From positions 248,001 through 312,000 of the forward strand of contig QPGO01000042.1 of NCBI GenBank assembly GCA_008632985.1: a stretch of 64,000 bases of DNA, read 5' to 3'. The number at the start of each line of letters is the position of its first letter. Position 1 is the stretch's first letter. The position numbers and the translations under genes were made by a program. The notes under the pieces are model-generated. The model was not told where the DNA came from, ran no database searches, and was given only the letters and a program-made list of their open reading frames with translations. The stretch comes from Psammoneis japonica. Lineage: Eukaryota. Positions 25,234 to 45,326 of this stretch are shown here, piece by piece.

Positions 25234-25507
25234 TTCTTTCTCGCTTGCAGTGAATGGATTATGCTTCGTTTATGCATGCTAGAGAGTCGAGATGGCAGAA
25301 CAAACATGACCAAGAATCGTGAGCTAGAGCAATGAGCAACGATGAGCAATGCCCGCCAGGTCAGCAGGTCGTCAGGACGACTCCTCCTCGTCGGCACCCG
25401 TGAGCCTCTGTGCGCGCGCTTCTCGCATGTCAGAAGTTTTTTGCTCGACTGACTCCTCGCCTGTTCACCTGCTGTGTCTGCCCCGCCCTCCGCCCTGGCC
25501 TACAGCG

Positions 25508-25964
25508 ACTGGCGTCGCTTTGCTCGTACGACTTCTTGCGGTGATCTAATTCTAGAGACAGGTAATTAGGAGGGATGGGAGGACTTTACTAGCTTAGTTG
25601 GTCCCTTTCCATTCCCAAGCTGGAACGGTGTGGCCAGAGGGAGGGAGAGGTGGGAGCGCTTTTGGACTGTCCACTCGGCTTGCTGCCAAAGCTCTTCGGA
25701 AGAATGAGCAACAGCAGCTTGCTTCCAAATGCCAACTTGGACGCATTCAATGGTGGCAGTGCGGGGGGTGACTTCCAGGTGCGTCATTAACGGGCAATGA
25801 GGTCATCTCCCCTTGTCGGTCTTTACGAGGCCAACCACTGGGGTCGCTTTGCTCGCGCGACTTCTTGCGGTGATCTGATTCTAGAGACAGGCAATTGGCA
25901 GGGATGGGAGGACTTTGCTGGCACAGTTGGTCCCTTTCCATTTCCAAGCTGGAACGGCATGGCC
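25508..25964. repeat. Direct repeat A, 128 bp x2 (25508-25635 and 25837-25964)
   Basis: Ungapped alignment by eye, 14 mismatches. Confidence 0.95.
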
Positions 25965-26540
25965 GTTCTGGCACCACCCACACACACTGGTGTGGGCAGT
26001 GGCGGTGCAATTGGGTGGGTGGGTGGGCCTGGCTGGAAGGCTGAGGCGCGGCCTGTGATGGAATCACGGGTCGGCGGGAGCAAGTGGCACATCGGCATTT
26101 GGGTGTGGGACACATTGGCCACCAGCCAACATGCGGCTTGCGAAATTGCGCATGACGGGTTCTGCTTGCAGGCGGAGGTGACGGATCATTTCGTCGGAGC
26201 GCCATCGGCCCAAGAGGCGGATCACGTCGGTGTCAACATGGGCACATGGGAGGGCCATGGCACCAGCCACGCGCAAACAGCGAGCAGAGACATCGGCAGG
26301 TGTGAAACCCAGCGCAGCGGGGCCAATTGCCAGAATTGCGGCACGCAGGATGCTGGCAACATCGGCGGGAGAGACACGGCGCCAGGTGTTGTTGTGCAAG
26401 CACACGCCCCTGAGCAACAGCAGCTTGCTTCCAAATGCCAACTTGGACATGTTCAATGGTGGCATTGCGGGGGGTGACTTCCAGGTGCATCATTGATGGG
26501 TGATGAGGTCATCTCCCCCTTGTCGGTCTTTGCGAGGCCA
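25705..26540. repeat. Direct repeat B, about 130 bp x2 (25705-25833 and 26411-26540)
   Basis: Alignment by eye. Both copies translate as HLEVTPR.ATIE(C/H)VQVGIWKQAAVA. Confidence 0.95.
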
Positions 26541-26699
26541 GTGAACAGCTTGAGGAGCAGGCCTCAGCGAGCGAGCAAAGTCCTTTTTTCTTTTTGCTCT
26601 TGCCACATCCATGATCCATGACACCCAGTGCCAGTTGCCAGCGAACATCGCCATTGTCGCCATTCCTTGCATTCTTTGTCACAATGGATGACACAACAG

Positions 26700-29600
26700 C
26701 AACAACATTGAAGGCCACCACTGCTGGTTGACATTGTTCCCCACCAACCCCACCCCTGCTGCTCTCATCTGACACAGCAGTGGTGCTGCTGGAGCTGCTG
26801 ACCAAGAGTGCACACACTTGATTGAACACCTTGACAATGAACTCAAACATCAAAAATTGTCCTCTCTTCACTGTGCCAGAGAGCATCATCAAGAGAGGAA
26901 AATGCAGGGAGAAGGTCGAGAGAGTCCAAGACTGTCTTCTGGATCAGACCGGCCATTTGTTTGACATGCTCAACAATGAGCTGAACCAAGCAGAGGTGGC
27001 TGCAGACGATGAGGAGCTCAAGAGAGCTCACAGCCATTGTGAAAATGTGCACATTTGCACATCATTGACTGGCACAGAAAAGCCATCTCAATTGGTGGGT
27101 CAAGGTCGCAAAGCATGACTCTCTGAAAGGTGGCATCAGAAGGAGAAGAAAAGAGTTCAAAATGATCTGAAATGTGTTCTCATGCTTCTTCCCACAGCAT
27201 GGATTGACAAGCTTGCCCAAAAAGCTTGCTTCATCAAAGAAAACCATGCATGCTCATTGGCGCTCTGCGTGCCACAGCAGCTCTTCATTGAAAAGTTTTG
27301 CAATGAACTTGAGCAGGTCCAGACCACACAGCATTCAGAGGAGTGTCAGAAGGTGGCCACATGAAGTTGGGGTCATTGTTGAGAAGTGTGCAGTTGCTTG
27401 TCCAACCACTGGCTCAACAACAAGGAACTCGAGGTTGAGGGTGCCAACAAGGCTGCAATCAAGAGAAGCCAAGACTGTCATGAAACAGCATGCACTGAGC
27501 AACACATTTGCACAGACAGCAGAGAATGCACACTGGCCATGTGACTCCAACACAGAAAAGAAAATGGCAGTTCTTGACAGAGCTCGGAAGCTTCCAGAGT
27601 GCCACAAATCAGATCATCACCAGCCCAGACAGAGTGCCAGAAACAGCTGTGAGCACAGCACCTGCATTGTCAGCAGCAGCATCACACTGAACATGAAGGA
27701 GCCATGGCAGATTCTCCCCATGTGTGTTGACCCTTTCTCAGGCAGTGGTGCAAGCCGCCCACATTGCAGCACTGTTCTCATGTCCACTCATTAAAAAGCA
27801 GTTCTTCCTGATCTCACTCTTCTCACTTTTTGTCTCACACTCACATTTGGGAGGTGTGTTGTGTTGCTGCTCCTCCGCCAACATGCAATGAGACAGGAGG
27901 AGGAGATCTGTCCTGCTTCAACACAGCTCACCATTGCAAGTTTTAACATGAGTTTCAGAGTCAAGAAAGTGGTGCCACCAACATTGCTGGTGGCATGAAC
28001 CCCAGTGGGCCTCCCCCCAACACTGCACAGAGCAGCTCATCAGACATCTGTTTGGCCCCAGCACAACTCAATGGGGTCAAGCAACCTTTCAATGCTGCAC
28101 TCAGCATGCAGATTGCAAATGCCAAAGCAAGGCAGTTGTGACAATGCTGATTGCAGCCAAGGCAGCCATGGTGATGTGAATTCTCAAGGATGCAAAGCTG
28201 ATGACAGTGTCAACCTGGGAAAGCAGTTTGAGTCTGCCTTGGACTCAGTCATGACTCAATTGTCATTCAGTTGCCAAGTGTGAGATTGACACACAAGACA
28301 CATCAACATTTTGCTTTTTTTTTGGCTTCTGCCAGCAAATGTGACTTTCATCACAAATGCCCACTCACTTTGGTGATGTTTCCCCACAAATTCCAACCTC
28401 TGACAGCACTGTGGCACCCATTGTGAGTGCAGAGAGCATCTCTTGACAGGCTGTTTTGTCCAATTTGGTGTGCATTGGTGCCAAGCTTCTCACCAAGTTC
28501 ATTGTTGTAGATGTTTTCTCTCTCAACCCAGGAAAAATGACTGATTTCAAATTGCCCATCCTGTCCCAATGTTGCCAAAGTGACTGTCAAACCATTGATC
28601 TGGCAATCCTCAAACAAACAGCTGGTGGGTGGGACAGTCCAAGCAGTCACCAACAAACCACCACCTCTGACAAAGGCCAAACAATGCAGAAATCACTCAC
28701 AGCCCATGCTGGCACTTGCTTTGGAGGTTGAATGCTGGGTGACAGCTGCAAGCAGACAAGCAACTGTCATGCTTGCCATCTCCCAGCCAAGAGGCTTTTG
28801 ATTTGACCAAGCACTCTCTCCCCCAAGGTTGGCAAGCTTCTGTGATGACCTTTGCATTCAACAGTGAACTTGAGATTTCAAATGGTCCTCTCTGTGAGTT
28901 GGGCAAGGATTGCTTCATCATGGCTGCTCAAGATCTGGTCAAGGCTCATGACCAAGAGATGTTTTGTCTTGTCAAGCAAGCAATGGGCAAGGTTGTCTGC
29001 ATTTTTGTCATCTCCATGAGTTTTCCATTGCCAATCTGCTGGCAGGATGAGTGCAAGGCTTGCATGGTGGCAGCTGACACTTCAGCCTGTGCAACAGCAT
29101 TGAGCTTGATGACACTGGACTTTCTCAGCTTCTGATTCTGTCTAAAGTCATGAACACCTTTTGCAAGAAAATCAAAGTCAAGTCCAACCATTTGAAAAAC
29201 TGCAAAGATCACACCCTGGTTTGGCATTGTTCATGATGGCCCTTGCCACCATGCACTGCCAGTGCTCTTGTGGATGTGTTGAGAGTGCTGAGAAGAGTCT
29301 GGAAGATGTTGCTTTGTGCACTTGCCCAGTCAATGACTGTGTGAATTTTGCTGGCTGAAGCTCTCTGAATTGTCAAAATTGCACAGACAGACTGTGCGCT
29401 GTTGGTCAAAATGGGTTCCAAGATTTTGCACAAGGTCTTTGTGAGACATCATCTGAACACTTCAATTGCCCTCTCTGCATGACAAGCTGGACAAGGCAAA
29501 AGTGATGGAGCACAACTGTTGACTCTCAAGGACCCAGCTGAAATCAAGTCAGACAGTGAGTGCAATGATGACAAGGCCAGTTCAATCAGCATCAACGAAG

Positions 29601-30000
29601 ACTTGCACTCTTGTCTAAAAAATGTTCTCACTCTTGTTCAGAGTTGAACTGTGCTTGACAAGAACTCTGTGTTTTAGACAATGCCTTGTCAATTGTGGTT
29701 AAAGGACCATTCATGATTGGCATGACCAGCAAAGCAGGAAACAATGCTTGATGAAATTTGATCTTGCAGTGCATGTCATCTTGACAAGATGATGATCTTT
29801 GCATGCATTGAGAATGAGGACATCAACATGCAATTAAAATGATTGGTGAAGTGGGAAATGACCATGAACAAAACTTGTGACTTGCAAGTGTTCGTTCTTG
29901 ACAACAGCGCACCTGCAACAAATTTTCATGGCTCATGTCAGACAATGATTGCATTCATTTGTCTCATTGGCTTGCTTTTACATTGGCTGTGTGCTGCTTG
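26700..30000 (+). pseudogene. Decayed coding sequence(s) of unknown family inside the hypermutated block
   Basis: Protein-like + strand frames broken by TGA and frameshifts, Tyr-free and Cys/His-rich. No family recognised. Confidence 0.35.
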
Positions 30001-30399
30001 CAATCTGATTCACACACGTGACAATTTTCTTTTTTTTGCATTAAATCTTCTTTGCTTTCTGTTTCCTGCTCTTTCCTCTTTGATTTGTTGGCTCTTCTTC
30101 TGTCAATGCTCCTGTCATCGTTTGCTGTCTGTGCACAATGTCATCTTTTGGTGGCTGTGCTTGCGAGGCATTTTTCTCCACTGCCGGTGCCCTTGGATTG
30201 GCCACAGCTTTGCGTGCAAGAAGTGAAGAACATTGTGTGACAGATCTGAGTTTTTGCATGTGTTTTGTTTTGACTCAGCTTTGCACACATGTGGCTCATG
30301 CTCACCTTTGTGTTGCCCCTGCAGTGCCATCTTCCCTTTGTGCTGAACTTGCATGTCAGCATGTGTGAGCATCAAGATTGGCAAAAGCATCAGCAGTTT

Positions 30400-33300
30400 G
30401 CAATGTTGCCCAAGCTGCCTGCTGCACTCACCTCTCTCTCTCTCTCTCTCTCTCTCTTGCCTTGTCTTGCATCTTTTTTCCTTCAATTGTGCCAGCCCTC
30501 TGCTCTGCATTTTCCTTCCCTCACTGCTGTCATTGTCCGGATGTTGGGCAAGTCCTGTGTTTTGTGTTCTTTTGTGAGGTGATTGCGATGTTTTTTGTGG
30601 CCAAGATGCCAGATCTGCTTGAAGCATCCCAAAGCATTGCACCCTTCATGCTCTTGACCCAAACAAGTTGTCTCCCATGCATGGCTCTTGCAGAAACCAA
30701 CATCAAAAGCTCTGCCCCCATTTGCTGACCCACATCTTGGACAAGCTGAGGTGTGTAGAATCTTCCATCTCTCCATGTTCCTGTCAATGGATGCAAACCC
30801 AGTTGCCCATTTAGGTTGCCAAAGTTTCCCAAAGGTTGGCGCTCTTTGCACAGCTTTGCCAAGCACCTCCCAATCAACGGGGGGGTGTGCTGGTTTGCAT
30901 CCCAGCTTTTGTCCAGTGTTGTGCAGCCGGGGGCCCACAGATGTGCTCAATCATCTGGTTGTGGTCCCAATTTGCTTGTGCTTCACCATGCAGATGTGTG
31001 CGCCATTGTTGTTGTTCCGGCATTTTGCAGCATCTGAACTCTGGTTCTGTGTGAAGTGCTTCCCAATGCACCTTTGCAAGGAGGTCCATTTCCACATTCA
31101 GTTGTTCCATTGGGGTGAGTTCCTGAAGCGGCACTTCCTTGTCTTTGTGGCCATCCACCTCCTCTGGCACCACAAGTGCAGGCAGAGTTTTGATTGTTCT
31201 GTGAATGGGTTGAATCAAGTCATGGTTCCATTGTTTTGGATCATCAAAGTTGTTGTAGAAGCATGTCCGCAGACCATCATCACAATCACAGCCCACAACT
31301 GCCTTGCCTTTCCTGATGTTGCACCATTCGCAGAGGTCCACCAAATGTTGCAGCACTCCACAGATCCCGCCTGGCTCTGCCCCATGTGCAGTCATTTCTT
31401 GTTTCTTTCCTGGTGCCTGATTCACTCCACGATGTCGATGTGAGTGTCCCAGGGACAAGAGGAGTGTCATTGCCACTGTTGCCATGTCATCTTTAAAGGA
31501 GCTGTCGGTTGCACACACTGCGGTTCCTTCTTCAATGCCTTGGATGAGAGCTTCCAGTGGTGGCACCTGATTGCATGGGAAAAACCACTGCCAAAAGACT
31601 GGCTCCATTTCGGTCAATGAAAGAACTGTTGCTGTCCCTGTTTGTAGGATGCAGTTGTCCGATCCAATTGTTTTTGTTGGGAGAGTGCCATGTGGCATGT
31701 TCTGTGTGGTGCTTGTGAAGTGGCAGCAATGTTGTCATCTCCTGTGTGCTTGTGGAAGGATGGAGCACACTCTGTGCTTGCCTCCAGTCATCCATTGATG
31801 CACCCCATCTTCCCATGCTGAGCATCTCCAGGTGAGCTTGCTTGTGTCTGAGATCCATTTTCCCAGAGGTCAACACAATCCAAGGTTTTTCACATTCCTG
31901 CCTGGTGACAGACAGCACATTGTCAGGGCTTCCTGCCACAATCACCAACAATTGGCCAATGGGAACCCTGCTTTTGGCCAATCACACTCACTTTCACACT
32001 CAGATGCTCCAGTCCAGCAGTCCTGCAGAATGCGTTGCCCATCTCCTGATGCAATGTCCAAGAGTTGGAGTGCCTTGATCCACGTTCTGCATGGGTTGAT
32101 CTTCCTGAGTCATTCGCCTTTGTGTCCGTGATCCACAAAGGCAGCCATCAGGAATGAATCTCACTCCTGCTGTCATGATGGGCTTGGGTCTGGTGAGACA
32201 AGCTCCATTTTGCAGTTTCTTGCAGAATTTCCACAGTGACTTGACCTGCATTTTAGCAGCCAGTGGAGCCAGTTTTTTGCAGTCTGATTGTGCACTTGGT
32301 GTGACACTCCCAACTCAAGTTGCAGCAATTCCTGAATTGCTGCAAGTTCACATCCTGTCATGGAGAGCGAGTCCCCTTCCTGCAAGCACACCTCCAATTT
32401 CAGCAGTCCTTGTAGCACACAGATCTCTGGAGCTCCCAATCCATTGCACTTCCTTGGTGCGAAGAGCACTTTCCTTGGGGATGATCTGGGACATCCCAGT
32501 GCCGGGAGAGCTGCTCCAAACAGCGGTTTCTGTGTTGAGTCACAGTCTTTCTTTGTCAGCAAGCATGCTGCCAGTGGGTGCTTTGTGCTTTGTGTCACTC
32601 CTCATTAGAAAGACAGCCATGATTCTGTCCTGTTCAAGTGTCTGCTCTGGACTTGGTCCACCCATTCTTCCACTTTTGCTCCGAGAGCTGCCAGTTGTTG
32701 TTCCGCAGTGCCGTCCAAAGCCACCCACACTCCCAGTGTTTCTTCTGCTTCCCATGCCTCTAGTTTTCTAATGATTGAGCACTTTCCTTTGTGGTCCAGG
32801 ACAGACACATTTCCCAGCGTTTCTGTGGCAGACTGGTGATGCCAACAATTGTTTTCCCACTTGAATGACACCAGATGCCAATGACTTTTTGATGTCACCA
32901 GTGCTCTGCCTGTGGCGCTGATGCCTCCTTCCCAGCAATCTGTCATTTGCTGCATTCCCTGGATGACCATGTTGGAACAGATGTGTCTTGCTCCCTCGGT
33001 GAGTGTGGCAGGTCTGTGTTGTCAACGAATGTGCAGCAGATGCAGTGAAAAGTGTTCTTGGTTGTTGGGGTCTCAGCAAGGATGCTGCACCCTTCCTCCT
33101 TCAACATGTTTGTTGCCGGAATGCTGGCTGGCAGCCAAATTGCCAGAACTGCCCCATGTCCTTGAAACTTTCCTTGGAGGGGCACTTCCAGAGTGCCGCA
33201 CGATTCTTCTGAATCTCCACAGGTGGTGTGCACATGGTGTGTGATTTGGCTCAACGTTGCCACTGTCACAAAGAGGTCATTGTCATCTTCTTTGTCACAC

Positions 33301-36300
33301 ATGCGCCTCACACACAGCAGGGTGACCAAGTGCAGAATTCTGTCATGCACAATTTGGCATCTGCACTGCAAACAGCTCCAGATTGGTGCAGTTGCTGAGA
33401 CATGTCTCCTGTCAAGACCTCATTTAGAGCACAGATGATTGCCCGGTGTCGTTTCCTGCTGCCGCATGCCTCCCACAGCATTTCCTGGTAGACCTCTGCC
33501 TGATGCACTGTTGCTCTTCTGCAGTGCTTGTTCATTTTGTTGTGTTGTGTCAAAGAGGATGATGATCCTGAGTTCATTGACGTGCGATGACTCCTGTTTC
33601 TTTGGGATCATCACGTCTGCCACCTTGAACCAGCATTTTGGTGTGCATCCCTGTTTCCCTGGAACAGCAGACATGCAAGCATCAAATTCTGCTGCCATTG
33701 GATGTTGACATCCTGCCTTGCAATTGGAGAAGGCTGGTCCAAAGGGGTTGCTGGACATGTGTCCTTTCATCTTTTTCCAGCTGTGGATGTGCTCCTCCAT
33801 GGAGTGTCTGCATCCAGGCGTGGAAGAGGCGGATCCGGAAATTTAGGTTGTTTGATGAATTTTGCTGTCCCCACTCTTCTGCACCTGGCAGTGGAACATG
33901 CATTCCTTGCAACACTTGTTTGGCAGCCAGTGCATCTGCCAGATGTGGAAGTTGTCTGGCAAGGGTGACTTCATGAATGGCACTGTGCTCCCAGGAGCAA
34001 AGGTCTGGCTGCATCGATTGCCACCTTCTTTTGTGCATGCCTTCTCAACTCCTTGTTTGGGAGAACACTCTTTGTCTGGTCCTTGCCTGTCGGGCCCAGT
34101 GATGGTTCTCATTGCATGACGAGCTTTCCCGGTGACTGTTCTGATTTGTCTGCAAATCTTCTTTTGCCAACATGCATGGCCAATAGCTTCTCCTCATGCT
34201 CCACAGTTGTTTTGTTCCTCTCCACCTCTTTGCACATCTAGAATGAAACTCATTTTGATGCAGCTTTCAATCCATTTGCTTGAGTCTCCTGTGCTCCTTC
34301 ACAGCAGCCTTGTGTTGAGCCTTGATTCCTTCTGCTGGGATTTGGAAGGCATCCATCCATCCTGCACATTTCATCTGTCATCAAATCGTCCTTGCTGATG
34401 CTCTTTGCCTGAAACAGAATCTGCAGATCAGTCTCCACAGGTGTGTCACCTCCCTTGCCTTGTTGATCTTGTTGGAAGATTCTGCTGAGTTCATGAACAA
34501 CTTCCTGCATTTTTCCTTTGCTGTCTGCCGCATCTTTCTGTTCTCCTTGAATGTGATTTTGCACTGGAAGCTGTTCTTCCAGACCAAACTCATCGCAGTT
34601 CTCCAGTGCTGTCACTCTGCTCAACAAGTTGCAAGAGAGTGACATCTTACACACAATGTCATTGCATTTCTTCACCACCTTCAGCTCATTCAATTTGCCT
34701 GTCAATCTGGTTTCATGGTTGCCAAAAGTGAGGTGTGCATCCAAAAAGACTGGATTTTCTGATGTTGATCCATGGCAGTCTGTGATCAGCTGTACAATCC
34801 ACCTCTCCAAAACCTGTCATCTCACCTCATTGAACCTCTGAACTGGTGAAATGAAGTTCTGTCTGTTGGGATTTTGGATCTGTTTTTGTCACAGGTTGCC
34901 ACCATGGACAGTTTCAGATGGAGGATGCTTGGAGCATTGATCAGGTGCAGTGATCTCATCCAGGACAGCATGTCCATGTTCCGAGTGTTTTCATTCATGT
35001 CAATTCCCAGCACTGTCAGATCTCCTTGTTCCTGCCATTGTCTTATCTGGCTGTTCAAGTCTTCAAGGAATGCTTTTCTTGGATCTCTCAGATCTTGTTT
35101 TGATGGCAAGCACACTGAGTGTTGGCTGTAGAATGTGCCTGGGTGGCCTGTCCTGTCTTGCACTGGGCGGCAGGCTGTTGTCATCCCAGTGTGGATGCCA
35201 TCCTTTCCTTTGAATCTCGCCCACATCCACCTCCCCAAGCCTGTGTCATCTTTTCCTTTTGACACAAGGTGATGGCTAGTGTGTGTTGAATGAAGTGTCC
35301 TGCTCCTCTGCATTGTCTCCTTCCAGACATTGAGTGGTGATTGTTTGCGGCCACCAATTTGTGCGCCAGTCATAGTTGGCACCATTGATCATTCCACTGT
35401 TGGTTTTTTGGTGTCCTCTTGAAGTCAAGGTGCTTCAATGATGCCAATGACGTTGACCTTGCTCTTTGTCATCCATTGTTTGAGCTTGTTGTGCTTGTTG
35501 CATCTGGTCTTTTCCACAGGCAGCCCTCCAACATTGTGGAAGGCAAAATGGCAGGTGCTCTGCACTTTCACTTCCAATGAGTCTCCCCACTGTGTTTGTT
35601 GGTTTGTCGGCCAAATTTTCCGTTTTTACATCCTCCTTGGATGATCACCGACGGGATCATTGAGGATGCTTTGCTTTGGGGATCCTGTCCAGCCCCTTCA
35701 ACCCGGGAGCTGGTAGAGTCATTTGCCGCTTGATTGTTTGTTTCATCCATTGGTGTGGCGGACTTGATGAGAGATCTGCAACACCCAGTCTCTCATGCAG
35801 TTTTGCAAGCTCTACTTCTGCTCTTGCCAGTTTGTCTCTGGTTGACAGGGTGGCAGCAAGAGATTTGTTGTCTTGGTCCCTCTTGTCAGTTGTGCCACCC
35901 ACTTGCCCCAATCCTTGAAACACAACAGACTTGGTCACCTTGTGATTGGGAATGCGTTGCATTGTCATCTTCATTTCTTGCAATGCCAACTGAGCTGATG
36001 TCATCATTGTTTTCAAGACATTGGACTGCTTGTTCCATGGCTGTCTTGTCCTCTTTCTTCTTTGGTGGTTTGGCTGGCTTCAACAATTCTCGTTTTTGGT
36101 GTGCTTCCTGCTGAGTGCTTTTGTTGGACTGCCAATTGTCCTCCATGCCCCACGGATTGTCATCGATGATCTTGAGAAGTTTTTCATTTTCCTTGGAGGG
36201 CATGGTTCCTGTCAAGGGGTCGCATTGGTGATGCTGGCAGATGGCTGTGCCACTGGCCTTGAACCAGGATGCTGCGTTGGGTCCGAGGTTGCACAATGCT

Positions 36301-37850
36301 TTGGGAATCAGATTGTTGATCGTCTTCATTGCTTTGGCGAACACCTTCCTTGGGAATGTGATTACATGTTCCAACAGTTGGATCCATTTTTGGTCCACAT
36401 GATGAAAGAGTGGGATCATTTTGGCCTTCTTCTTGTCTGCCGTGGGATCCAGAATGCATTTCCTCATGAGGCAGTGCCAAAGATTGATTTCTCATCCTTG
36501 ACGATCTTTGACAACAGAGTCCAAATCCCTGAAGAATGTGAGTTCCACTTGACCTGGCACTTGTTCCATGAAGTGGTGCTGGCATTGTGCAAGTTCTGAC
36601 ATGTTCTTTTTGACGTCATCTGGGGCATGCCGAAGGGCCTGAGAGGAGCAGCATGGTGCAAAGCGCAAGGTCAGACCTAAGACTTTCTTTCTGGCTCCAA
36701 CTCTCCACAGTTTCTCTGCTGCAGTCCTGGCTGTGTGGGCATGATGGACTTCTGCATCAATGTGAATGGCCATGGGGTTCTTCTTTGGATTGTCTCTGTC
36801 AAATTTTGGTCTTTTCCCATCAGTTCCACAGATTGTCCTCCATTGAAGTCCCACAAGAGTCAGGTCTTTGATGCCCAAATGGTGACAAATCAGGTGGTGT
36901 GGAGCGTTCGTTCCATCATTGTTTTTGAGCTGCAGCAGAGCCACCCGACACATTCAGAGCAAGCAGCCTGGCAAGGAACCCTGTTCCTTGCCACCAAGAA
37001 CTTCCCCACCTCTGTTTCTTCCATTGTGCCACAGAGTTTTGTTCCAAAGTCATCCAGCTCACATTTTGGTCGTCCCTCTGCAGTGAAGTGGATTGAGCTC
37101 AGCAAGTTGTGTGCTCTTGATTTGCTCGAGGGTCACAATGACCTGCTCCCAGAAATGCACTGAAAAGCTCTCAATCTTGAGCTTTGTTTTCCAGAATGTC
37201 TTCTGGGGATCTCCAAACTCCGTGTGTCTCTTCCAGGTCTGGATCCCATGTTCCAATGCAGACATTGTCTCTGAGAATGCTCTGAACAATGTCAAAAGCT
37301 TGAGCCAGCACTTTCAATGTCTCCTTGAATGATTTGGCTGTTGTTGGGGTAACAAGCCATGCATTGCATCTGATGGCCCATGTTTCTACCTCCTCTTTGT
37401 CATCCTCTCCTTTGGATTCTGCCATTGCTGAAAGAGTCTTGGCAATTCTGGCTTGCAAGGTTTTCCACAGGATCTTCTTCTGGATTTCTGGTGTCTTCTT
37501 TGTCTTCTGTGGTTTCCTCCTCATCTGATTCATCAGATTTTTTGCTGCCCTTTTGCTGTTTTCATCTTCTTGTTCCTTCTCTTGCTTGACTTGATCTGGT
37601 TGGATGGCAGTGTCCTTGACAAATCCTTTGTCAAAGGCGTTGTTGCAGTTGTGTTCTTCTGCTTCCTCACCTGATCCTCCTTTGTGATCTCAAGTTCTTT
37701 TGGAGGTTCTTCCTTTCTTTGTTCTCATTCCTGTTGCACGTGTTGTGTTCATGGGGTGTGATGACTTTCTCCCCTGTTTCCTTGGTGCGTGTTTTTTGCA
37801 TGGAATTAGCACTGGAGTTCATTGGCGCCAACAATGATTGGTTGTCCTCA
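30400..37850 (-). mobile_element. Degenerate non-LTR retrotransposon, Ambal-like (ORF1 + APE/RT/RNase H ORF2)
   Basis: ORF1 remnants about 35.65-37.6 kb (LQWRTI..AIHID..GLTLRFAP; LFHHVD). ORF2: APE (WGD..FHNVGGL, DDTGLGRW, DPRKAFLEDL..GIDMNE), RT (QGKFQGHGA..IW, FVDNTDL, WEGGISATGRALV.SKSHW, ETLGVW), RNase H (ATDSSFK, AE.GGI, GCD, VDGHKD..LNVEMDLLAK), and CPRC. Ends approximate. Confidence 0.85.
30432..30457. repeat. (CT)n microsatellite near the 3' end of the LINE
   Basis: About 13 CT units seen directly. Confidence 0.9.
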
Positions 37851-37999
37851 TCGTCAGTCTTGTTGGATCATTCAATCAATTGATTTGCTTGGCCATCTTG
37901 TCCTTTAACTTTTTTCTTGTTCACACCCTTGCAAGGAGAGCCATGATTCTTCCTGCCAGAGGCAAGGCATTTCTTTCCCCCACCATGGTGCAATTTTTT

Positions 38000-40900
38000 T
38001 AGCTGTCAGTTTTTTTGTGTGTGCGTGTTGTGCTGCCTTCATCAAACCTCCTCCTGCATTCAAGCATTGGTCTGGCTCTCGAGACTGGGTTGTCTTTGAA
38101 TGACAACTGTCAAAACTCACCATGCCAAAGAAGAAGAAGAAGAAGCAGCACTCCAAGAGTCAGAAGGAAAACACTTGTCTGGACAGTGACAACAGACAAC
38201 CGGTTTTGCTCTGTTCCGAGCATAAAAAGGCTGCAGAGCAGTTTTGCCAAGGGCTTGCAGCTGTGATTTTGCCAGTCACATTGGGAGCAAACGTTTGTGA
38301 TTTGGTCAGGGCCATCGATTCCTTGACTGCAGCATCCAGCAAAACAACCCAGGTCTCTCCCAGTCTTCTCCGCATGCTCCGCTCTGTGATTCGCATTCAA
38401 CAACAAGTCTCCACAACATGCAATCAACAGGGAGAGGCAACAAAGGTCATGAATGCTTTGTCCAGGTCTTGCAATTTTGCCATCAGTGGCTCCAACTTCT
38501 TGTCATCAAACAAGAGGCTCCAGCAGCAAACACAGGCGGTGGAGATCACAGGAGTTGTCTGACAATTGGTTTGCAGCTCTCTCTGAAGCAGAGGATGCAC
38601 ATGCCCAAGATGAGAGCAACAGGGTTTCTGACTTGCCTCTGGACAAGATTGAACGTCCTGAGGAGCCAGAGCATGATTGTTGCCAAATCAAAGAGGACCG
38701 TGTTGATGGCTTGGACAGCTTTCTTGCTTGCACATTTTTGGATGCCATGAACACTCTCATGGGCAAGGTTTCGGGTGCGCTCGACAATCTCAAGAGTCGT
38801 TGTTGACAACAATCACATGCCAGCAATGGTCTTACATTTGAGCTGATCAAATGTGCTGTGGTCGCAAATGCTGCCATGCAGGAGCTTCGACATGCCAAAC
38901 AAATGATGATTGCCAAATGGCCTCATCTCAATGCCATCTTTTGGATCCCAGCGGAAGCATTGTTTCCTGACATTGTCAACAAACTTGTGGACAAGATAAA
39001 AGGCAACGACTGGTCAAAGTGAGCAACAGCAACAAGCATCGTTGAGGACAGCATGCACTTGCATTCATTCAGGATGGAAAAAGATCACAAGGAATTGTCC
39101 AGCAAATTGAGATGCTTTGAAAAGAAATGGAGTGCAACTGGTGTGAGCGTTGAATTTGCATGTGAACTTGTGGGTTCCTTCTGCTTGTTTGCGCTTGGCC
39201 ACACAAATCAAAAGCTGCTTGAAAAGGCAAACAGCTCATGGTTTGCAGTGAAAGAACTTGATGAGAATGGAGAATGTGTTCCGGCAAAAATTGAGCCTCA
39301 TTTTCTCCTTTCAAAATGTCATTTTCTTGCAGGCGATTGATCTCTTTGGTTTGCAATTGACTGTCTGGAATGGTTTGAAGAACACAGAGCCATTGTCTCC
39401 TCAGAGCCTGGCCTGAAGGATTGTCATTTGCCAGAATTCACAACAAAACATCCATGACCCTGCACAATCGGTCATGTCCTTGCACAATTTCATGACGTTC
39501 ACACAAGGGGTGGAAGCAGCCCTTTTGCGGCATGGCGGAATCCCTTTCTTGTGGACCTCAGTGACATGTTGATGGATGCCACAAATGCAAGAGTGGCAAG
39601 TCACCCCACCTCTCTGTCCCTGGTGCTCATTGTGCATTCCATCCAGATGGCAATGACATGCCTTGAAGGAGACAACAATTCATTTAGATTGTCTGCCATG
39701 GCCAAGGTACGTCACAAAAATGAGGTGCCAACTGTGACAGCATGTGTTTTTAATTGCGTTGCTGCTTTCTTGATGTTCTCGCACAAGTGGGTTTCTTTTG
39801 CAAAATCTGTCCAAGAGTTCTCCCATTCTTGTGAGTGTCCCAACTTGTTTGTCAGTGACATGAAGGACAAAGTGCAAACAGTCCCTTGCGCACAAAAAAT
39901 TCATTCTTGGAAGAAAAATGGCTTTCAGCTGGGATTCCTGGCAGTGGCAATGTTGCCTTTTGGAATCCTTGTGTGGCAGGAATGATGTCACAGGAACACT
40001 GTGACGTGACCTTGCGTCAAGGACACGATTTCCTTGACAACTTTGGCCAGATCAGGGCCATGCTTCATTTGGCACATGCGCTGTAAGAGCATGGCACAGA
40101 ACTCAAAAGACACGAGCCAGTTGGTTTTCTGGAAAATCTTCATGGGAAGGCAAAGTCAATCTGGGCTGTCAGTTCCTTGCTGAAGCAACCCAGTTTGCAA
40201 CTCACTGTTGGCTGGCAAAAGGAATCAAGCCAGATGTTGTGAGTGACCTTTCTCAGAGATCAGCTGTCTGTTTGGATGAAAGGTTGTCAATGGAGTGTTG
40301 CAGGCACATCCATCATGTCGCCTGGGTGCAAGACAAGCTCGAGGAGAAGAGCATCTCACGTCTTTTTGCTGGATGCATTCAAGAGAAATGAACAAGCTTG
40401 AAAGAAGAGTTGGCAGTGTGATGGACATCTGCCACAGCCACAAAGCACTTGAAGGTTCTTTTGGAAGTGGAGTTTCAGGATCTTGTGGATTGGAGGATTG
40501 GCCAGCCATGTTTTGCTGCCAGGTTGCTGAAATCCTGTTGTGCCTTGACAATGAAAAAGAACTTCTCTCTGCCAACCTCTTGTCTTTTGGACTGGACCTC
40601 TCTGACTTTTATCGGACACTTTTTGAAAAGACAGACATCAGTCTTGTTGTTGCAGATGGACATTTCAAGCTGTGGGAAGCTGAATGCTCTGCAGCATTGT
40701 TTCTTGCATCCTTGGACATTGCAGAATCAGTGGACAACAGCGACTTTGTGAGGAAAGTTGTCAAAAGTGGGCGAAGTGTTCAACACTTCCTTTGGCAACA
40801 AGAGCTTGTCAAAGCACACTTTCTTGATTTGACAAAATGGCATCAAACTGTCTTTCTCAGGTTTCTTCAAGTCTTTGGTTTGGCAGCTCTAAATTCTGAC

Positions 40901-43900
40901 ACAATGCATTTTTGTTTCTGCATGGAAGATGCACCTGTCGAAGGACATGCGTCCAACTTCTTGGGGGATGTCAGCGCAACTTGCAAAGGGATTCGCTTTG
41001 GTGACACTCATTGCTCAGATTGCTCAATGTCACAAGAATGGGTTGTGCTTGCAGATGATCTGTGTTGTCACAGAGAGTGGAGTCGTCAAACAACACAACA
41101 GGAAAAATGAAGTGTGACCCGGAAGGGCATTCATTGCCAAGTTCAGCCAGGGACAATTTGAGATTGTCCTCAGCTTGATTTCACCAATCTTCCAGTGCCA
41201 AGAGAGCCACAAATGTGCTCACAAGTTTGGAGACAGTGCCTCTCCTTGTGCAACCACTGACAAGACTGGACAACCTGCGGATCATGGAAAACCCTTCCCA
41301 CATGATGCAGTGAGGAAAATTGGCACAAACATGCTGGGGAAATTGGGTCCTTCATGCACAATGGAGTGGATGGGCTCTGGCCCAACACAATCAGCGTGCT
41401 GCTTTCTTGCATCACAAGGTGGTGGAGTGGGATAAAGGCTTGTGCTTGCAGTCACTCTCCTCTCCTTGGCATGTCCAGTCCAAGATGGAAAAGCCTTGCA
41501 CAATCTGCTTCATCATCATCACAACCAACTCTTTCTCCAATGGATGCAGCTTTTTGGTGGAGTTTGTTTCATGAAGGTGTGGAGGTCACACCAGTTGAGC
41601 TTCTTCCACAACCTCCAAATCCAGTGCATCAAAGCAGCACATGCCATCATCTTCATCAAAGACACTTCCATCATTGTCCTTGTGGGAGCAGGAAGAGGAT
41701 GAGCGAGAATGATGCACTGAGAGAACATCAAACTCCTCCTCAGAAATGGCATGTTGTCATGGCACAAGCCAGCATCAGACATCTCTTGAGCCAGAGAGCC
41801 AATGTGAGTTGCTCCATCACTGGAAAATGATGAGAGTTGGTGCTGTCAGCAAAAACACTCCCCACCTTGTTCATTGGGAGACATTGCCATCATTCACCAA
41901 TGGAAATTTCTTTGTTGCTGGCAGGAGACAACAAAAAGAGGGGAGACAAAAATGATGGATTGCCATTTGCAAGGGACAGGAACATGAATCCAAGCAAGCA
42001 AGAAGCCCAGACTCTTTCAGCACCATTGACTGCAGAGCATTCAGGCTGCTTTGAGCAACCCATTGAGAGGCAGGGAGCCTCATTTTGGCAACCTCTCTTC
42101 CATCAAGCCCCCCCAGCTGTGGAGCACCCGTGGGTTCATGCCAGAGCAATCTGCCAACAAGCTGCCTGAGAAAGAGCAGCTGGCCACGGGCCAGCACACA
42201 TGGGTGTGTGGTGTGCTGCTGCTGCTCATGCAGCCCCCAACCACAACCCTGGTTTTCTCAATGCTGCAGTTGCTGCAACAGCGCTGGTCACTCTTGTGCC
42301 TTTGGCTGAGAGGAAGAGCAATGAGGAAGTGAGTGTGGATGATGTGAGTTGCATCAACTTGAGTGCACAAAACACTTGCCAAGTCATGGGTCAAGTTGCA
42401 GCCCCAACCATGGTCAAGACAGTTGCATTCCTGAAGAAGCTGCAATGGCTTTCAAATGATCCAACACATTGTCTTCATTTGAGAACAAATCTCTGGCCAC
42501 TGAGCTGCTTCTGGCATCTAAATTGTGTTCAATCAAAAACCCTGATGAGATTTTTGATGTCCCCACTGACCTTGTGGACACACTGTCAGATGCCATCACT
42601 TCTGATCTCTGCCTCATTGTTGGGCACAACAAACACTTTGAAGACACCTGTGAAGAACAGCCAACTGGCATCACCTGCTGTGGTTTTGATTTTTGTGCCT
42701 TTTGGCACCTTGGCATCATGGATGATTGTCAGGGAGTGGATGAAAATGAGATCTGTTTGTGTCAGTCTCTTTTGGGATGAGAGCCACACTCTCTGTGTTT
42801 TGGTTCACAGCTGTGTTCTGGGGAACAACAACATGTTGTGTGGGTGTTTTGCTCCAACTCCATTCACCATTCATGCTCTGCACACCACCGGCACAAGATT
42901 CCTTCCTTGCACAGCTTCCCAGCATTGTGGGTGGTCCCATCTGCTGCCATCATGGTCTGGCTGGTTGGCAGTCTGCACCAGTTGGCAGGCCCAGCATCCT
43001 TTTTCAAATGCACCAAGCCACCCCTTTCTGCTGCTCCAGGGTCTGCAACACCATCACAGAAGAGCTGGGCAACCAGATTGTTGCTTTGGGTGCTGGGTCT
43101 CTGTGTGAGTGCAACAAGATCAAGGACAGGCAGGCACTTGCCATTTTGTCACTGAGCCAGCAGCTCTGAGCCTGCTGGAAAACTCTTGAGCCAGTTGGGG
43201 AGTCAGCAGCATTCAATGAACCAGCTCTCTTTGACACCTGGCACATGCAAGGAAGTTTGTGTGGGTGGGAGCAGCTCAAAGCGCTCTCAAAGAGTCAGCA
43301 CCCCCATGGATGGAAGCCCGCAAGGCTCAAGAACTTGCTCTCTTCTCAGGGGGGGCTGCTCGCAGGCAGCAGCATTCCTGAAATGCTCCCTTGGCACTCA
43401 TCACTTGATTCCATGTTTGGAGGGCACCAAGATGGGCACTTTGATGCTGGACAAAGCTGACCTTCTGCCAGAGGGTGTGGATCTTTAGATTGTCTCTGCA
43501 GCTGCAGATTGTTGAGAGATCCTGCACCATGCAGTGAAAGATTTCTCATGTGGCTCTTTGATGCTGCATGCTTTGGTGTCATCTTTTCAGCAATCTGACC
43601 TGCAGTTTCTCAAAAAATGCTTCATTTCAGTGAAAGACCATCTCTCTAGAGATGCACCAAAGCTGTGTGGGGATGATCTGACAATGAACAAAGTGATGAG
43701 TCTCACGCTGCTTGAAGAAGCAGACATTTTGCATTTCACCCACCAGATCAGCACCTTCTCAGAGGAGTCAGCTCCCAAACCCAAGCATGGGTGACCTCCA
43801 ACAATTCCACCCAGGCCCGTTGTCAGTGCTTTGGATGATGCTTTGGATGATGCCCTGGCACTTCTCCTGCTGGGAGCACAGGTGCTGCTCACACTGCCCC

Positions 43901-44600
43901 TGTGGCCTGCAGGTGAGCTGAGAGGCAGCAGCAGCACTTTTGCGGTTGAAGAGTGGGGCTGTGTTGCAGTCATCAGCACATTCTCAAAGCACAGCAGCTG
44001 CAAAGGAAAGGCATGTGCTGACATCAGGAGCAACAGATGTGCAAAGATTGAGCATTTTGATGATGGAGCTGTTGTTTGTGCACCAGGGTTTTGCCCACGG
44101 CAAGCTTGCAGCACAAGAGTGGGTGCCTCAAAGTTGCTGTGCATTGGCTCACCTGGAATGTCATGATCTTCTGCAGGGTTTGAATGGCCACTGATGGTCT
44201 TGAAAAAGGCATGTGCATCTTCAAATGAGTGTGGCAAAGAGTGAGAGCTGCAGTGCACAACATGCTCCCATTGCACCCACTCCAGCCAAGTGTGTCTCCC
44301 CACACTTTGTGGGCCAAGTTTGCGTCAATGTTGTTTGATGCCACCCATTGCCAACAGGGCACCTGACACCCTGCTTGCATGCAACATGATGTTGAGCATT
44401 TGTCACTTGACAGTGTTTGTCTGCAGCAACACCCACACTGCAAACTCTCATGGGCTCAATGTCATTTTCAAGCTTTTGGGGCTGGACACATGAAAAAGAT
44501 TTTTTGCCAAATCTTGAGCCGCTCCAGAGCAGAGCCAAAGCACTGTGCCAATGCATTTCTCACCTTCCTGAACTCTCATTGCTCTCCTTCTGTTCAGGCA
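38000..44600 (+). pseudogene. Long decayed + strand coding region(s) of unknown family; possible tyrosine-recombinase-like C-terminus near 41.3-41.45 kb
   Basis: Chains of protein-like ORF fragments, and HDAVRKIGTNML..(frameshift)..ALAQHNQRAAFLHH resembles YR box II spacing. Confidence 0.3.
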
Positions 44601-45055
44601 GCTGGGGGGGGGGGGGGGGCAACATTTGTGGCTTGCTTGAGCAGGGCTTTGTCTGCCATCTGACAAAACCAAGCATGTGCTTTTGCCCACAGTGCGAGCC
44701 ACAGTGCTTGTTCAGCAGCACCCACTTGCTCTCATTGAGACACTGTGGCTGAGTCGGGTCTGACTCATCGGGGGCATCTCGTGGCCCAGCAGGCTTTGGG
44801 CACGCAACTGTCAAAGTGTGGTCCATGGCTGGTCGGGATCGTGCTGGAGGTGGCAGGGACGGACCAAAGTACAAAATTGCTAAAAGTAAAGAAACATCGC
44901 ACAGACAGACCGCCATTGCGATTTTTTGTGCTGATGTCGGCCCAAATTCTTAGCACTAGCTGGGCACGTACTTTTCTACGCTGGTACTCCTACCTACAAA
45001 GCTTTGAATAATAATCGCTGTGTCGCGCGCGCTCGGCCATGCATACCCAACATGA

Positions 45056-45189
45056 ACCGATCCAACATTTTTGAAAATAATGTGGATCGGTCCTACCAGA
45101 AGAATCAAGTATAAAAATATTCAATTCTGTTTATTATTTGGGAACCCGGATCCAACATTTTTTCTGAAAAAATGTTGGATCCGGGTTCC
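45056..45189. repeat. Two related palindromes (imperfect 45056-45091; perfect 24-bp arms 45141-45189)
   Basis: ggaacccggatccaacattttttc-t-gaaaaaatgttggatccgggttcc and accgatccaacatt..aatgtggatcggt. Confidence 0.95.
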
Positions 45190-45326
45190 TGGTCCTGGTC
45201 CAATGACGTCATGACACAGGAGAACTACCGGCGGAACTTGGCGACACCCCAATCTGGAATCTGACCCCTGGAAAACCTGGAAACCCTCTCGCGTCGAAGC
45301 ACGAGGCACGAGGCACGAGACACAAG

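Follow-up and report, generated by a model that had tools for sequence, protein, structure and literature searches.

The window analysed here, a 64,000-nucleotide stretch of contig QPGO01000042.1 of Psammoneis japonica, contains three islands of aberrant dinucleotide composition, together with repeat and transposon sequences in or beside the first island. The host is a diatom (Stramenopila). The features are as follows.

25503–25835, plus strand: unmutated, internally deleted copy of a repeat unit (segments A and B), with TA and CG kept, abutting island 1
25832–26542, plus strand: mutated, longer copy of the same unit (A′–internal–B′), paralogue of 25503–25835
25837–44876, no strand assigned: island 1, TE-rich, about 93% of TpA and about 80% of CpG erased, both to TpG/CpA
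30519–35604, minus strand: degraded APE-type non-LTR (LINE) retrotransposon with endonuclease, RT, RNase H-like region and zinc finger
52892–57405, no strand assigned: island 2, same signature, 16 TA (170 expected) and 30 CG (265 expected)
62607–64000, no strand assigned: island 3, same signature, 2 TA (53 expected) and 24 CG (82 expected)

Islands 2 and 3 fall beyond the coordinates given in a preliminary description of this DNA, and island 3, in which TA is gone and CG is lost only in part, runs into the end of the window.

Over the three islands together (25883–44869, 52892–57405 and 62607–64000), 72 TA and 281 CG were counted, compared with about 940 and about 1459 expected at the flank rate. 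TA O/E was 0.04 across these 24.9 kb, and CG O/E was 0.19 as compared with 1.02 in the flanks. The span 25883–44869 contained 54 TA (717 expected at the flank rate), 227 CG (1113 expected), 2194 TG and 1985 CA; island 2 contained 530 TG and 541 CA. In the 1-kb bins from 26001 to 44000, O/E was 0.00–0.12 for TA, 0.00–0.55 for CG, 1.47–2.01 for TG and 1.75–2.04 for CA, whereas the flanking bins had a TA O/E of 0.4–0.8 and a CG O/E of about 1. These bins, a sliding-window check that the preliminary description had proposed, and the counts agree with its account of TpA nearly absent, CpG low and TpG/CpA abundant between normal flanks. The TA-free run that it placed from 25883 to about 27791 lies between 25882 and 27792, and a second one covers 43647–44870. 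The erasure is nearly saturated.

The loss of TA plus CG in the islands (0.082) is about equal to the gain of TG plus CA (0.085), so that the summed YR steps hardly differ (islands 0.2371, flanks 0.2344), while AA, AT, TT and the remaining dinucleotides show essentially no shift. TG (2871) and CA (2679) are nearly balanced over all islands, and a runs test on 4179 steps (z = 0.05) finds them randomly ordered, indicating independent hits. Among forward-strand stop trinucleotides, TGA accounts for 617 of 675 in the islands and 692 of 1325 in the flanks. The base 3′ of a surviving TA is A in 29 cases, G in 29, C in 11 and T in 3, as compared with 320, 313, 372 and 419, respectively, in the flanks (chi-square, p = 3e-8; p = 2e-12 for the context preference with both strands pooled). 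Most surviving TA stand in YTAR contexts, and the process evidently prefers TAT/ATA and spares YTAR.

The left edge of island 1 offers a before-and-after comparison. The outside unit at 25503–25835 is multi-copy (summed depth 720 vs about 58 elsewhere), and its aligned cores hold 10 TA and 13 CG. Its paralogue inside the island has no TA past position 25882 and has lost CG in part. Over 262 aligned positions the two differ by 26 mismatches, 21 of them transitions, and their identity rises from 89–91.5% in four letters to 97–98.5% in purine/pyrimidine space. The 10 TA of the outside copy are read in the island copy as TG (6), CA (2), CG (1) or TA (1), and the 13 CG are reduced to 9. In this small pair (10 TA, 13 CG), TA is thus lost to a greater extent (90%) than CG (31%). 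Likewise, the 26001–27000 bin has no TA and a CG O/E of 0.55, and the 63001–64000 bin has a TA O/E of 0.00 and a CG O/E of 0.30; TA was evidently lost faster than CG within the same DNA. Since the multi-copy unit with intact TA lies directly beside the island, not all repeated sequence is mutated. The edges of island 1 were set where paralogous contigs diverge, leaving loose ends at 25837 (before) and 44876 (behind), and mutation stops no more than a few tens of bases from where the repeated DNA ends, with the neighbouring genes untouched.

When 151 family proteins were aligned to the window by tblastn, they mapped only at 30519–35604, with 308 of 308 segments on the minus strand. Full-length relatives of this LINE carry recognisable domains (RVT_1 in 14 of 23, Exo_endo_phos in 12 and zf-RVT in 5). 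By contrast, a Pfam scan for TE domains in the 145 ORFs of 75 aa or more yielded no match at the curated cut-off, and only scattered chance-level matches up to E = 1. With a TA O/E of 0.068 and a CG O/E of 0.19, the window copy thus appears to be hypermutated beyond Pfam recognition. At 13 columns where Tyr is conserved, it reads His 7 times, Cys 5 times, Trp once and Tyr never; when 8 aligned relatives were counted separately, 285 Tyr positions faced His in 81 cases and Cys in 61. The replacement of Tyr by His and Cys in similar numbers indicates that both strands were mutated about equally. In the alignable part, Tyr makes up 0.1% of residues (2.9% in the relatives), Cys 5.0% (2.1%) and His 4.9% (3.8%). 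The earlier observation of ORF fragments that lack Tyr, are rich in Cys and His and mostly end in TGA is consistent with these values and with the TGA excess. Stops make up 1.1% of the aligned frame and the frame breaks between tblastn segments, so the reading frame is destroyed, which points to decay rather than selection.

The preliminary description had also asked whether related intact copies are themselves TA-free. They are not: TA O/E was 0.55–0.84 and CG O/E 0.70–1.09 in 80 of 80 related LINE loci, and none of the 1027 one-kb windows in 573 kb of these loci fell below a TA O/E of 0.37, so that the family is evidently not natively TA-poor. The search for these loci used a peptide pattern with Y/F in it and a ranking by similarity, and so worked against mutated copies; the loci therefore show the state of intact copies, not the rarity of mutated ones.

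The claim that 19 kb are transposon-derived holds for the 5.1-kb LINE copy and the multi-copy unit of about 0.7 kb at the left edge, where a transposon or repeat origin is demonstrated. It does not extend to the rest: no TE domain is recognisable in about 13 kb of island 1 or anywhere in islands 2 and 3, whose 55 ORFs gave no convincing Pfam match. Confinement to repeats is therefore read from the LINE copy, the multi-copy unit, a few segments in which the summed depth is raised, and the loose edge ends.

Contigs from a public DNA run (X1) of up to 3228 bases reproduced the TA-free state, with a word depth of about 58 and 30 of 30 bins covered, although this run, of unrecorded library type, may share its sample with the assembly and is thus not fully independent. 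X1 differed from the window at 251 places over 20 kb, of which 223 were transitions. They include adjacent TG/CA double differences at 27380/1, 27407/8, 27889/90 and 31007/8, as well as CG versus TG/CA differences, suggesting that mutation continued after the X1 and window sequences separated.

We conclude that islands of this diatom chromosome, in part shown to be transposon-derived, were very probably hypermutated in place at the DNA level. The sequence comparisons show the direction and context of the changes, their strand symmetry and confinement, and that they arose in place. The paralogue pair, the Tyr to His/Cys replacements in the LINE, its TA-normal relatives and the coincidence of the edges with paralogue divergence bear out the earlier proposal of a strand-symmetric, in-place change of TA to TG/CA. 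At each TpA, one of the two adenines, on the top or the bottom strand at random, would become G, yielding TpG or CpA, which would no longer be targets; at CpG, a slower C>T change on either strand would give the same two end products. We infer that the CpG loss reflects deamination of 5-methylcytosine in methylated TE DNA. For TpA, we tentatively favour an ADAT2/TadA-like adenine deaminase of the cytidine-deaminase fold that would be drawn to DNA bearing a mark (methylation or heterochromatin) and deaminate A after T to inosine, which replication would fix as G. This enzyme is putative, as are its targeting signal, the silencing of the DNA and a role in defence. A Pfam scan of the 27 long flanking ORFs gave no deaminase, DNMT or TET/JBP domain, which agrees with the preliminary description, where no responsible gene could be identified in the window.

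It might be argued that a modified base at TpA/CpG was miscalled by the platform or polisher and that the genome truly reads TA and CG. Miscalls are plausible in methylated TE DNA, which the islands probably are, and the possible identity of the X1 and assembly samples, with the unrecorded library, leaves room for a shared error. However, strand-specific miscalls at palindromes would break contigs or randomise TG/CA in each data set. If the choice of TG or CA were consensus noise, about half of the roughly 1550 former TA/CG sites of island 1 would disagree between data sets, as compared with the 251 differences seen. Combined with the lack of strand blocks in the TG/CA order, the TA kept in the adjoining paralogue and the match of the island edges to the ends of repeated DNA, this makes an artefact very improbable. 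It is equally improbable that the elements arrived poor in TA and CG from a foreign source or that TA was removed by selection, for instance because it exposes DNA to a TA-specific nuclease or to transposons that target TA. One foreign source would account for the like composition of several unrelated sequences, but TG/CA in the mutated copy stand opposite TA in the unmutated paralogue, the relatives of the LINE are normal in TA and Tyr, and its frame is wrecked by Tyr to His/Cys changes at conserved sites, stops and frame breaks. The least probable reading is ADAR-like A-to-I editing, with a 5′ U preference, of retrotransposon transcripts or of cDNA before integration. A>G after T does fit the neighbour preference of ADAR/ADAT (bioRxiv 10.64898/2026.01.13.699255). 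Such editing would nevertheless alter one strand and give Tyr to Cys alone, whereas both His and Cys occur and TG and CA are balanced in random order; equal hits on both strands argue against it. The signature is also found outside the LINE and starts and stops at the island edges, and sequences about 1% divergent carry TG versus CA at some sites, pointing to changes after insertion.

Two alternatives accept hypermutation of DNA and differ as to its chemistry. Polymerase eta is prone to A>G errors at WA motifs, TA included, and error-prone repair synthesis of this type recruited to heterochromatin was among the options of the preliminary description. WA also covers AA, yet AA shows no depletion (O/E 1.23 in the islands, 1.16 in the flanks) and AG and GA are not enriched; a TA loss of 92% (72 left of about 940) with AA unaffected does not match a WA hotspot, so that this option is very unlikely. 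Thymine oxidation is the strongest of the alternatives, though still unlikely, and the sequence by itself fits A deamination and T oxidation alike. 5fU and 5hmU mispair with G, and dinoflagellate 5hmU favours TpA. A TET/JBP-type 5-methylpyrimidine dioxygenase acting on palindromic YpR of marked TE DNA (T in TpA, 5mC in CpG) would give T>C through 5hmU/5fU mispairing and C>T through oxidised or deaminated 5mC. As TA and CG are both 5-methylpyrimidine–purine palindromes if CpG is methylated, and their losses coincide in islands and in edges, one enzyme class would explain exactly the loss of TA and CG and the build-up of TG/CA. In dinoflagellates, also SAR protists, a TET/JBP homologue makes TE-enriched 5hmU, and its inhibition activates those TEs (PMC11572971). 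On the other hand, the two losses are separable (in the two bins and the pair described above), the T of TpG is stable, so that strict TpA specificity would be required, and the preprint on TpA mutation in Bigelowiella natans nowhere uses the term CpG (bioRxiv 10.64898/2026.01.13.699255). A search for literature joining 5-hydroxymethyluracil, dinoflagellate and TpA found none, which also counts against thymine oxidation.

The favoured reading, adenine deamination at TpA alongside decay of methylated CpG, can be set beside known systems. Fungal RIP depends on RID/DIM-2, is premeiotic and is triggered by duplication. It turns CpA into TpA, creating TA and lowering GC, with C as the target base; the diatom islands are the opposite, in that A/T at TpA is the target, TA is destroyed and CpA/TpG pile up. 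The intact multi-copy unit beside island 1 further indicates that duplication alone is insufficient or that the process is not immediate, in contrast to RIP. The islands share with RIP (described in PMC9998398) irreversible, dinucleotide-specific transitions on repeated or TE DNA that destroy frames and leave neighbouring genes intact. TE methylation in diatoms is reported to depend on DNMT5a (PMC9998398), and methylated-CpG decay resembles what we observed in changing CG to TG/CA on both strands of TE DNA only, as also seen in the CG versus TG/CA differences between the window and X1. It accounts for only the CpG half, however; 5-methylcytosine deamination could not do away with TpA, and TA was lost faster. 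The 5-hydroxymethyluracil of dinoflagellates is likewise thymine-directed, TE-enriched, found in a SAR protist and tied to TE silencing, and T>C could arise from it, but the available part of the report describes an epigenetic mark rather than a mutator and gives no TpA erasure (PMC11572971).

The closest counterpart is the hypermutation of TpA to TpG/CpA in integrated viral and foreign DNA of the chlorarachniophyte B. natans, so that this kind of hypermutation can no longer be called undescribed, as it had been (Mettrop et al., April 2026, bioRxiv 10.64898/2026.01.13.699255). In mutation-accumulation lines, integrated viral DNA there acquired A>G/T>C changes at TpA only, at a rate of about 6e-7 per site per generation; TpA-poor gene sets were enriched in RT and endonuclease-RT domains, TE genes were TpA-depleted, and an ADAT2 homologue is named among possible enzymes (bioRxiv 10.64898/2026.01.13.699255). 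B. natans and the diatom islands share the change of TpA to TpG or CpA by strand, the confinement to foreign or selfish DNA with RT/endonuclease-RT sequences affected, the long-term signature (TpA depletion, CpA and TpG gain, clustered 1-kb windows) and the proposal of an adenine deaminase. They differ in host, a rhizarian there and a stramenopile here, and in saturation (Rho 0.45 in the B. natans NCLDV region vs a TA O/E of 0.04 here). The diatom islands also lose CpG strongly, show a flanking-base preference, YTAR being spared, and contain no recognised viral genes. By analogy, the diatom process appears to be of the same kind as that measured in B. natans. The near-total rewriting of TA and of most CG to TG/CA would then be the mark of targeted hypermutation, for which there is one earlier report, from an unrelated alga.

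Dinucleotide composition in 1-kb bins, a check that the preliminary description had proposed, sets island DNA apart from its gene-bearing surroundings. Across bins 26001–44000 the observed/expected ratio (O/E) was 0.00–0.12 for TA and 0.00–0.55 for CG, with TG at 1.47–2.01 and CA at 1.75–2.04, whereas gene-bearing flank bins had a TA O/E of 0.4–0.8 and a CG O/E of about 1, in line with the normal content attributed to the flanking genes. The features concerned are as follows.

25503–25835: intact unit of 333 bp outside island 1, a shorter, internally deleted copy lying directly upstream of the next unit, with TA and CG kept
25832–26542: mutated unit of roughly 0.7 kb, forming the left edge of island 1
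25883–44869 (edges 25837 and 44876): island 1
30519–35604, minus strand: degraded LINE copy inside island 1
52892–57405: island 2, with the same TA/CG signature, beyond the coordinates of the preliminary description
62607 to the window end: island 3, with the same signature, likewise beyond those coordinates

Together the three islands span 24,892 bp (24.9 kb, 39% of the window) and contain 72 TA and 281 CG dinucleotides, against about 940 and about 1459, respectively, predicted from the flank rate; this puts TA at a frequency of 0.0029, compared with 0.0378 in the flanks. The reported near-absence of TpA is thus borne out, is stronger than claimed and extends to two additional islands, and the report of low CpG with abundant TpG and CpA agrees with pooled island O/E values of 0.04 for TA, 0.19 for CG, 1.74 for TG and 1.85 for CA. 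TA-free runs in island 1 reach from 25882 to 27792, where none had been noticed between 25883 and about 27791, and from 43647 to 44870; the last kilobase of island 3 (63001–64000) has no TA and a CG O/E of 0.30. Only TA, CG, TG and CA are changed in the islands, AA, AT, TT and the other dinucleotides being as in the flanks. Relative to the flanks, TA plus CG is down by 0.082 of all steps and TG plus CA is up by 0.085, with a pyrimidine–purine total of 0.2371 in the islands and 0.2344 in the flanks; this balance is the pattern expected from transitions of TA and CG to TG and CA in DNA that was initially flank-like. Of 675 stop trinucleotides on the forward strand of the islands, 617 are TGA, versus 692 of 1325 in the flanks, and Tyr makes up 0.1% of the alignable coding remnant versus 2.9% in its relatives, with Cys and His raised, as expected from the earlier account of Tyr-poor, Cys/His-rich reading frames ending mostly in TGA. 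The gene-bearing kilobases bordering island 1 (45001–47000 and 25001–25880) have a TA O/E of 0.38–0.42 against a flank mean of 0.56, which could be due to chance or to a slight spread of the process.

According to Pfam, the proteins encoded in the flanks are of ordinary kinds: two protein kinases, a SOUL haem-binding protein, an eIF3m-like PCI protein, an alanine racemase, an amino-acid transporter, a BEACH protein, an ABC1 kinase and ClpS, among others. The named relatives of two flank proteins are exclusively diatoms (Thalassiosira, Skeletonema, Cyclotella, Stephanodiscus, Minutocellus, Extubocellulus, Attheya, Chaetoceros and Coscinodiscus), with top identities of 75–78%, and of 81% to unnamed sequences; by protein similarity, the host is a diatom, and its own proteins were not among the matches. 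Deaminase, DNA-methyltransferase and TET/JBP domains were absent from the 27 long flank ORFs scanned with Pfam, in keeping with the earlier remark that no responsible gene is identifiable there. A tandem array at 59290–59671 (units of about 100 bp, 88–93% identity between copies) lies in non-island DNA, with a protein-kinase ORF (57581–59014) on one side and the ORF for the ABC1 kinase, starting at 59840, on the other; the bin containing it, 59001–60000, has a lowish TA O/E of 0.24 and normal CG.

Domain searches of the islands returned almost nothing. Sixteen large island ORFs gave a single chance-level Pfam match at E ≤ 0.01 (TMEM43, 16.1 bits versus a cut-off of 23.3), all 145 ORFs of at least 75 aa in island 1 gave scattered weak matches at E ≤ 1 that never reached the curated cut-off, and islands 2 and 3, with 55 ORFs scanned, gave two chance-level matches at E ≤ 0.01. 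One ORF, at 30877–31734 on the minus strand, was 46% identical to a metagenomic protein, P0121, whose family comprises 5429 proteins (E ≤ 0.001) and whose full-length members measure about 1800–1900 aa. Among 23 full-length relatives of P0121, Pfam detected RVT_1 in 14 (best E 1.6e-11), Exo_endo_phos in 12 (7.2e-9) and zf-RVT in five, identifying the family as an APE-type non-LTR (LINE) retrotransposon. In tblastn searches, 151 family proteins aligned colinearly to 30519–35604 on the minus strand, their sole location in the window, with several frame breaks, spanning residues about 35–1660 of proteins of 1808–1893 aa. Through its relatives, this stretch has the architecture of an APE-type LINE, the window copy itself giving no Pfam match; part of the element, recognised from motifs by eye and without a tool match, we take to be RNase H-like. 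The family profile had no match among PDB sequences at E ≤ 0.01.

The preliminary description had called the whole 19 kb transposon-derived. This stands for the 5.1-kb LINE and the multi-copy 0.7-kb unit; the other ~13 kb of island 1, like islands 2 and 3, has no recognisable domain. When the window was compared with itself, both in four letters and as purines/pyrimidines, no LTR or TIR pairs emerged, and the only island paralogues were the two short left-edge pairs of island 1. A weak match between 23706–23813 (BEACH gene) and 44682–44794 (right end of island 1), with 93.8% identity over 113 columns in purine/pyrimidine space only, may be chance or low complexity. Within the left-edge unit, the sequence 'LLGRWRSDEMIRHL' in a 141-aa ORF (26067–26489, minus strand) resembles, to our eye, the catalytic C terminus of tyrosine recombinases of the Crypton/DIRS type, with His in place of the active-site Tyr; this reading was dropped, having no Pfam support and a best E of 0.85 in a PDB sequence search.

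Four lines of comparison point to mutation in place as the origin of the island signature: the paralogue pair, the Tyr columns of the LINE, the composition of its relatives and the island edges. The two left-edge units share 262 aligned positions with 26 mismatches, 21 of which are transitions, and their identity rises from 89–91.5% in four letters to 97–98.5% when purines and pyrimidines are collapsed. Ten TA dinucleotides of the outside copy read TG (six), CA (two), CG (one) and TA (one) in the inside copy, and CG falls from 13 outside to nine inside. The normal state gives way to the mutated one no more than about 30 bp from where the units join, and paralogous contigs part from the window sequence at positions 25837 and 44876, the start and end of the TA-free state. 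Tyr is shared by at least 60% of the aligned relatives in 13 LINE columns, at which the window shows seven His, five Cys, one Trp and no Tyr; TAY>CAY and TAY>TGY give exactly His and Cys.

That intact copies of these elements might themselves be TA-free, a possibility raised at the outset, is contradicted by all 80 related LINE loci from metagenomes, which have a TA O/E of 0.55–0.84 and a CG O/E of 0.70–1.09 within the element, compared with 0.068 and 0.19 in the window copy. Likewise, none of 1027 one-kilobase windows across 573 kb of these loci had a TA O/E below 0.37, although the loci, chosen by a Y/F-containing peptide pattern and ranked by similarity, portray intact copies and not the rarity of mutated ones. 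They come from a second scan (alignment A4), the first (A3) having yielded 472 pattern matches with none confirmed. Flanks of two loci, L058 and L026, had a CpG O/E of 0.49 and 0.61, raised TG/CA and normal TA (0.61 and 0.57), so that in other hosts of this LINE family CpG does decay on its own, with TpA left in place.

Sequencing artefact is an unlikely origin for the islands. Contigs from X1, a public DNA sequencing run that may share its sample with the assembly and whose library type is not recorded, covered all bins of 25200–45199 at a word depth of about 58 and differed from the window in 251 places, 223 of them transitions. Island 1 has roughly 1550 former TA/CG sites, and strand-specific miscall noise would make X1 and the window disagree at about half of them, many more than the 251 differing places over 20 kb. 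Moreover, TG and CA follow one another in random order along the islands, strand blocks being absent (runs test z = 0.05, 4179 steps). Of two other sequencing runs, X2 covered a small share of the compared stretch and X3 none of it.

The change is strand-symmetric, as had been proposed, with similar numbers of TG (2871) and CA (2679) in the islands, and seven His versus five Cys at the Tyr columns (81 versus 61 when each aligned relative is counted). Because editing of retrotransposon RNA or cDNA would alter one strand only, these similar hits on both strands exclude it; ADAR-type RNA editing followed by retrotransposition was rejected, as His and Cys both replace Tyr and the signature extends past the LINE. 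Error-prone repair of the polymerase-eta type, suggested earlier, would change A to G at the WA hotspot, that is at both TA and AA; it is disfavoured because AA is not depleted in the islands (O/E 1.23 versus 1.16 in the flanks). The 72 residual TA dinucleotides are followed by A in 29 cases, G in 29, C in 11 and T in three, against 320, 313, 372 and 419 in the flanks (p = 3e-8), and with both adenines of each site pooled the order of survival is TAA > TAG > TAC > TAT (p = 2e-12). Most residual sites are thus YTAR (TTAA, TTAG/CTAA, CTAG), and ATA/TAT is almost extinct. New TA arising from CA or TG would carry a 3′ T about one quarter of the time; the 3′ T at three of 72 sites, versus 29% in the flanks, therefore argues that the bias reflects substrate preference and not origin, and sparing of YTAR may be a preference of the putative enzyme.

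Judging from these sequences, the loss of TA can be told apart from that of CG and runs faster. Bin 26001–27000 has no TA and a CG O/E of 0.55, and in the paralogue pair 90% of TA but 31% of CG was lost, on small numbers. Methylated CpG is usually held to be the fastest-decaying site, so a TA loss that outpaces it, again on small numbers, implies a hypermutation-like rate at TpA. Comparison with X1 bears on timing. Among the places listed (40 of the 251), 38 were island differences, including 13 CG<>TG/CA changes, eight adjacent TG<>CA doubles, two TA<>CA transitions and one TA>TT transversion. TG facing CA is expected when a TA or CG once common to both sequences has been hit separately in each, suggesting some activity after the split of the two sequences, be they haplotypes or strains; most sites agree, so the bulk of the erasure is older than that split.

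These observations show a DNA-level process, confined to islands that include repeated or TE DNA, in which transitions on one strand or the other turn TpA into TpG or CpA, together with a slower second process converting CpG to TpG/CpA, TG/CA being the absorbing state. The islands are presumably methylated and silenced, with CpG probably lost by 5mC deamination and TpA enzymatically. The sequence carries the signature that methylated-CpG decay would leave, in its CG O/E of 0.19 and its CG<>TG/CA differences from X1. The natural substrate adenine of ADAT2/TadA-type enzymes follows a uridine. Deamination of adenine to inosine by such a CDA-fold enzyme is the chemistry that we prefer, tentatively and at a little under an even chance; in the available text of a preprint on Bigelowiella natans, the authors also favour an ADAT2-type adenine deaminase (bioRxiv 10.64898/2026.01.13.699255). 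The main rival, which we consider doubtful, is a TET/JBP-type dioxygenase that oxidises thymine at TpA, with subsequent mispairing with G. T and 5mC are both 5-methylpyrimidines, so one enzyme class could cover exactly the TA and CG loss, and a dinoflagellate TET/JBP homologue marks and silences TEs with 5hmU according to the available text of PMC11572971; the separability of TA loss from CG loss speaks against it, and a literature search joining 5-hydroxymethyluracil, dinoflagellate and TpA found no paper. As to methylation in diatoms, the available text of PMC9998398 documents DNMT5a-dependent TE methylation in Phaeodactylum and describes DNMT4, which is related to RID, the RIP enzyme, as widespread in centric diatoms. 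More broadly, an old SAR-wide defence common to diatoms and chlorarachniophytes might recognise marked selfish DNA and irreversibly rewrite two palindromic pyrimidine–purine steps, TpA and methylated CpG, to TpG/CpA by a single enzyme class (a dual A/C ADAT2-type deaminase or a 5-methylpyrimidine dioxygenase). We regard this as improbable; if true, island CpG loss would be part of an active system and not passive decay.

TE coding capacity has been erased so far that the elements escape standard domain searches, not one of the 145 ORFs of island 1 attaining the Pfam cut-off, and hence the TE content and 'orphan' DNA of such genomes may be misjudged. CRISPR knockouts have been achieved in a diatom, as reported in the available text of PMC9998398, and since several diatoms can be transformed and edited, knockout or phylogenetic profiling in a diatom with this signature offers a way to the enzyme. 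A natural A:T-to-G:C editor of double-stranded chromosomal DNA acting at a fixed dinucleotide would also be of interest to base-editing work.

Among known systems, fungal RIP has a kindred logic but the opposite direction: it changes C to T at CpA, and the TpA excess and CpA/TpG deficit that it leaves are not seen in the islands. Textbook RIP is triggered by duplication and hits all sufficiently long copies. By contrast, the left-edge unit, whose summed contig depth of 457–720 versus about 58 across most of island 1 indicates that it is multi-copy, includes an intact-TA form (summed depth 720; only 333 bp, and it may be young) adjoining its own mutated longer copy. Repetition alone thus seems not to ensure mutation; the 333-bp unit may have escaped by being too short, too young or outside marked chromatin.

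Among the papers that our literature searches listed, this signature was not described for any diatom, and TpA-specific hypermutation of selfish DNA appeared solely in the available text of the preprint on B. natans, a rhizarian alga (bioRxiv 10.64898/2026.01.13.699255). There, mutation-accumulation lines show A>G/T>C changes at TpA only, at about 6e-7 per site per generation, in integrated giant-virus and virophage regions; the local rate rises about 1000-fold and the process is active in some lines only, and TpA-poor, CpA- and TpG-rich windows are clustered, with RT and endonuclease-RT domains among the affected genes. This precedent, as far as its available text goes, removes the label 'undescribed' from the preliminary description, whose observation is confirmed and whose interpretation is partly supported. 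As in B. natans, changes of A:T pairs in the islands fall in a TpA context only and give TpG/CpA, both strands are hit with similar A>G and T>C numbers, and selfish DNA is affected and host genes spared, TE identity here being limited to 5.1 kb and the 0.7-kb unit. Compared with the same text, the window differs in its diatom host, near-saturation, erasure of CpG along with TpA and flanking-base preference. We rate the islands as a further case of this very recently described kind of TpA hypermutation. The same signature near saturation in a diatom suggests that the process is not peculiar to one species, and with two distant SAR lineages now represented, TpA hypermutation may be widespread across SAR protists.
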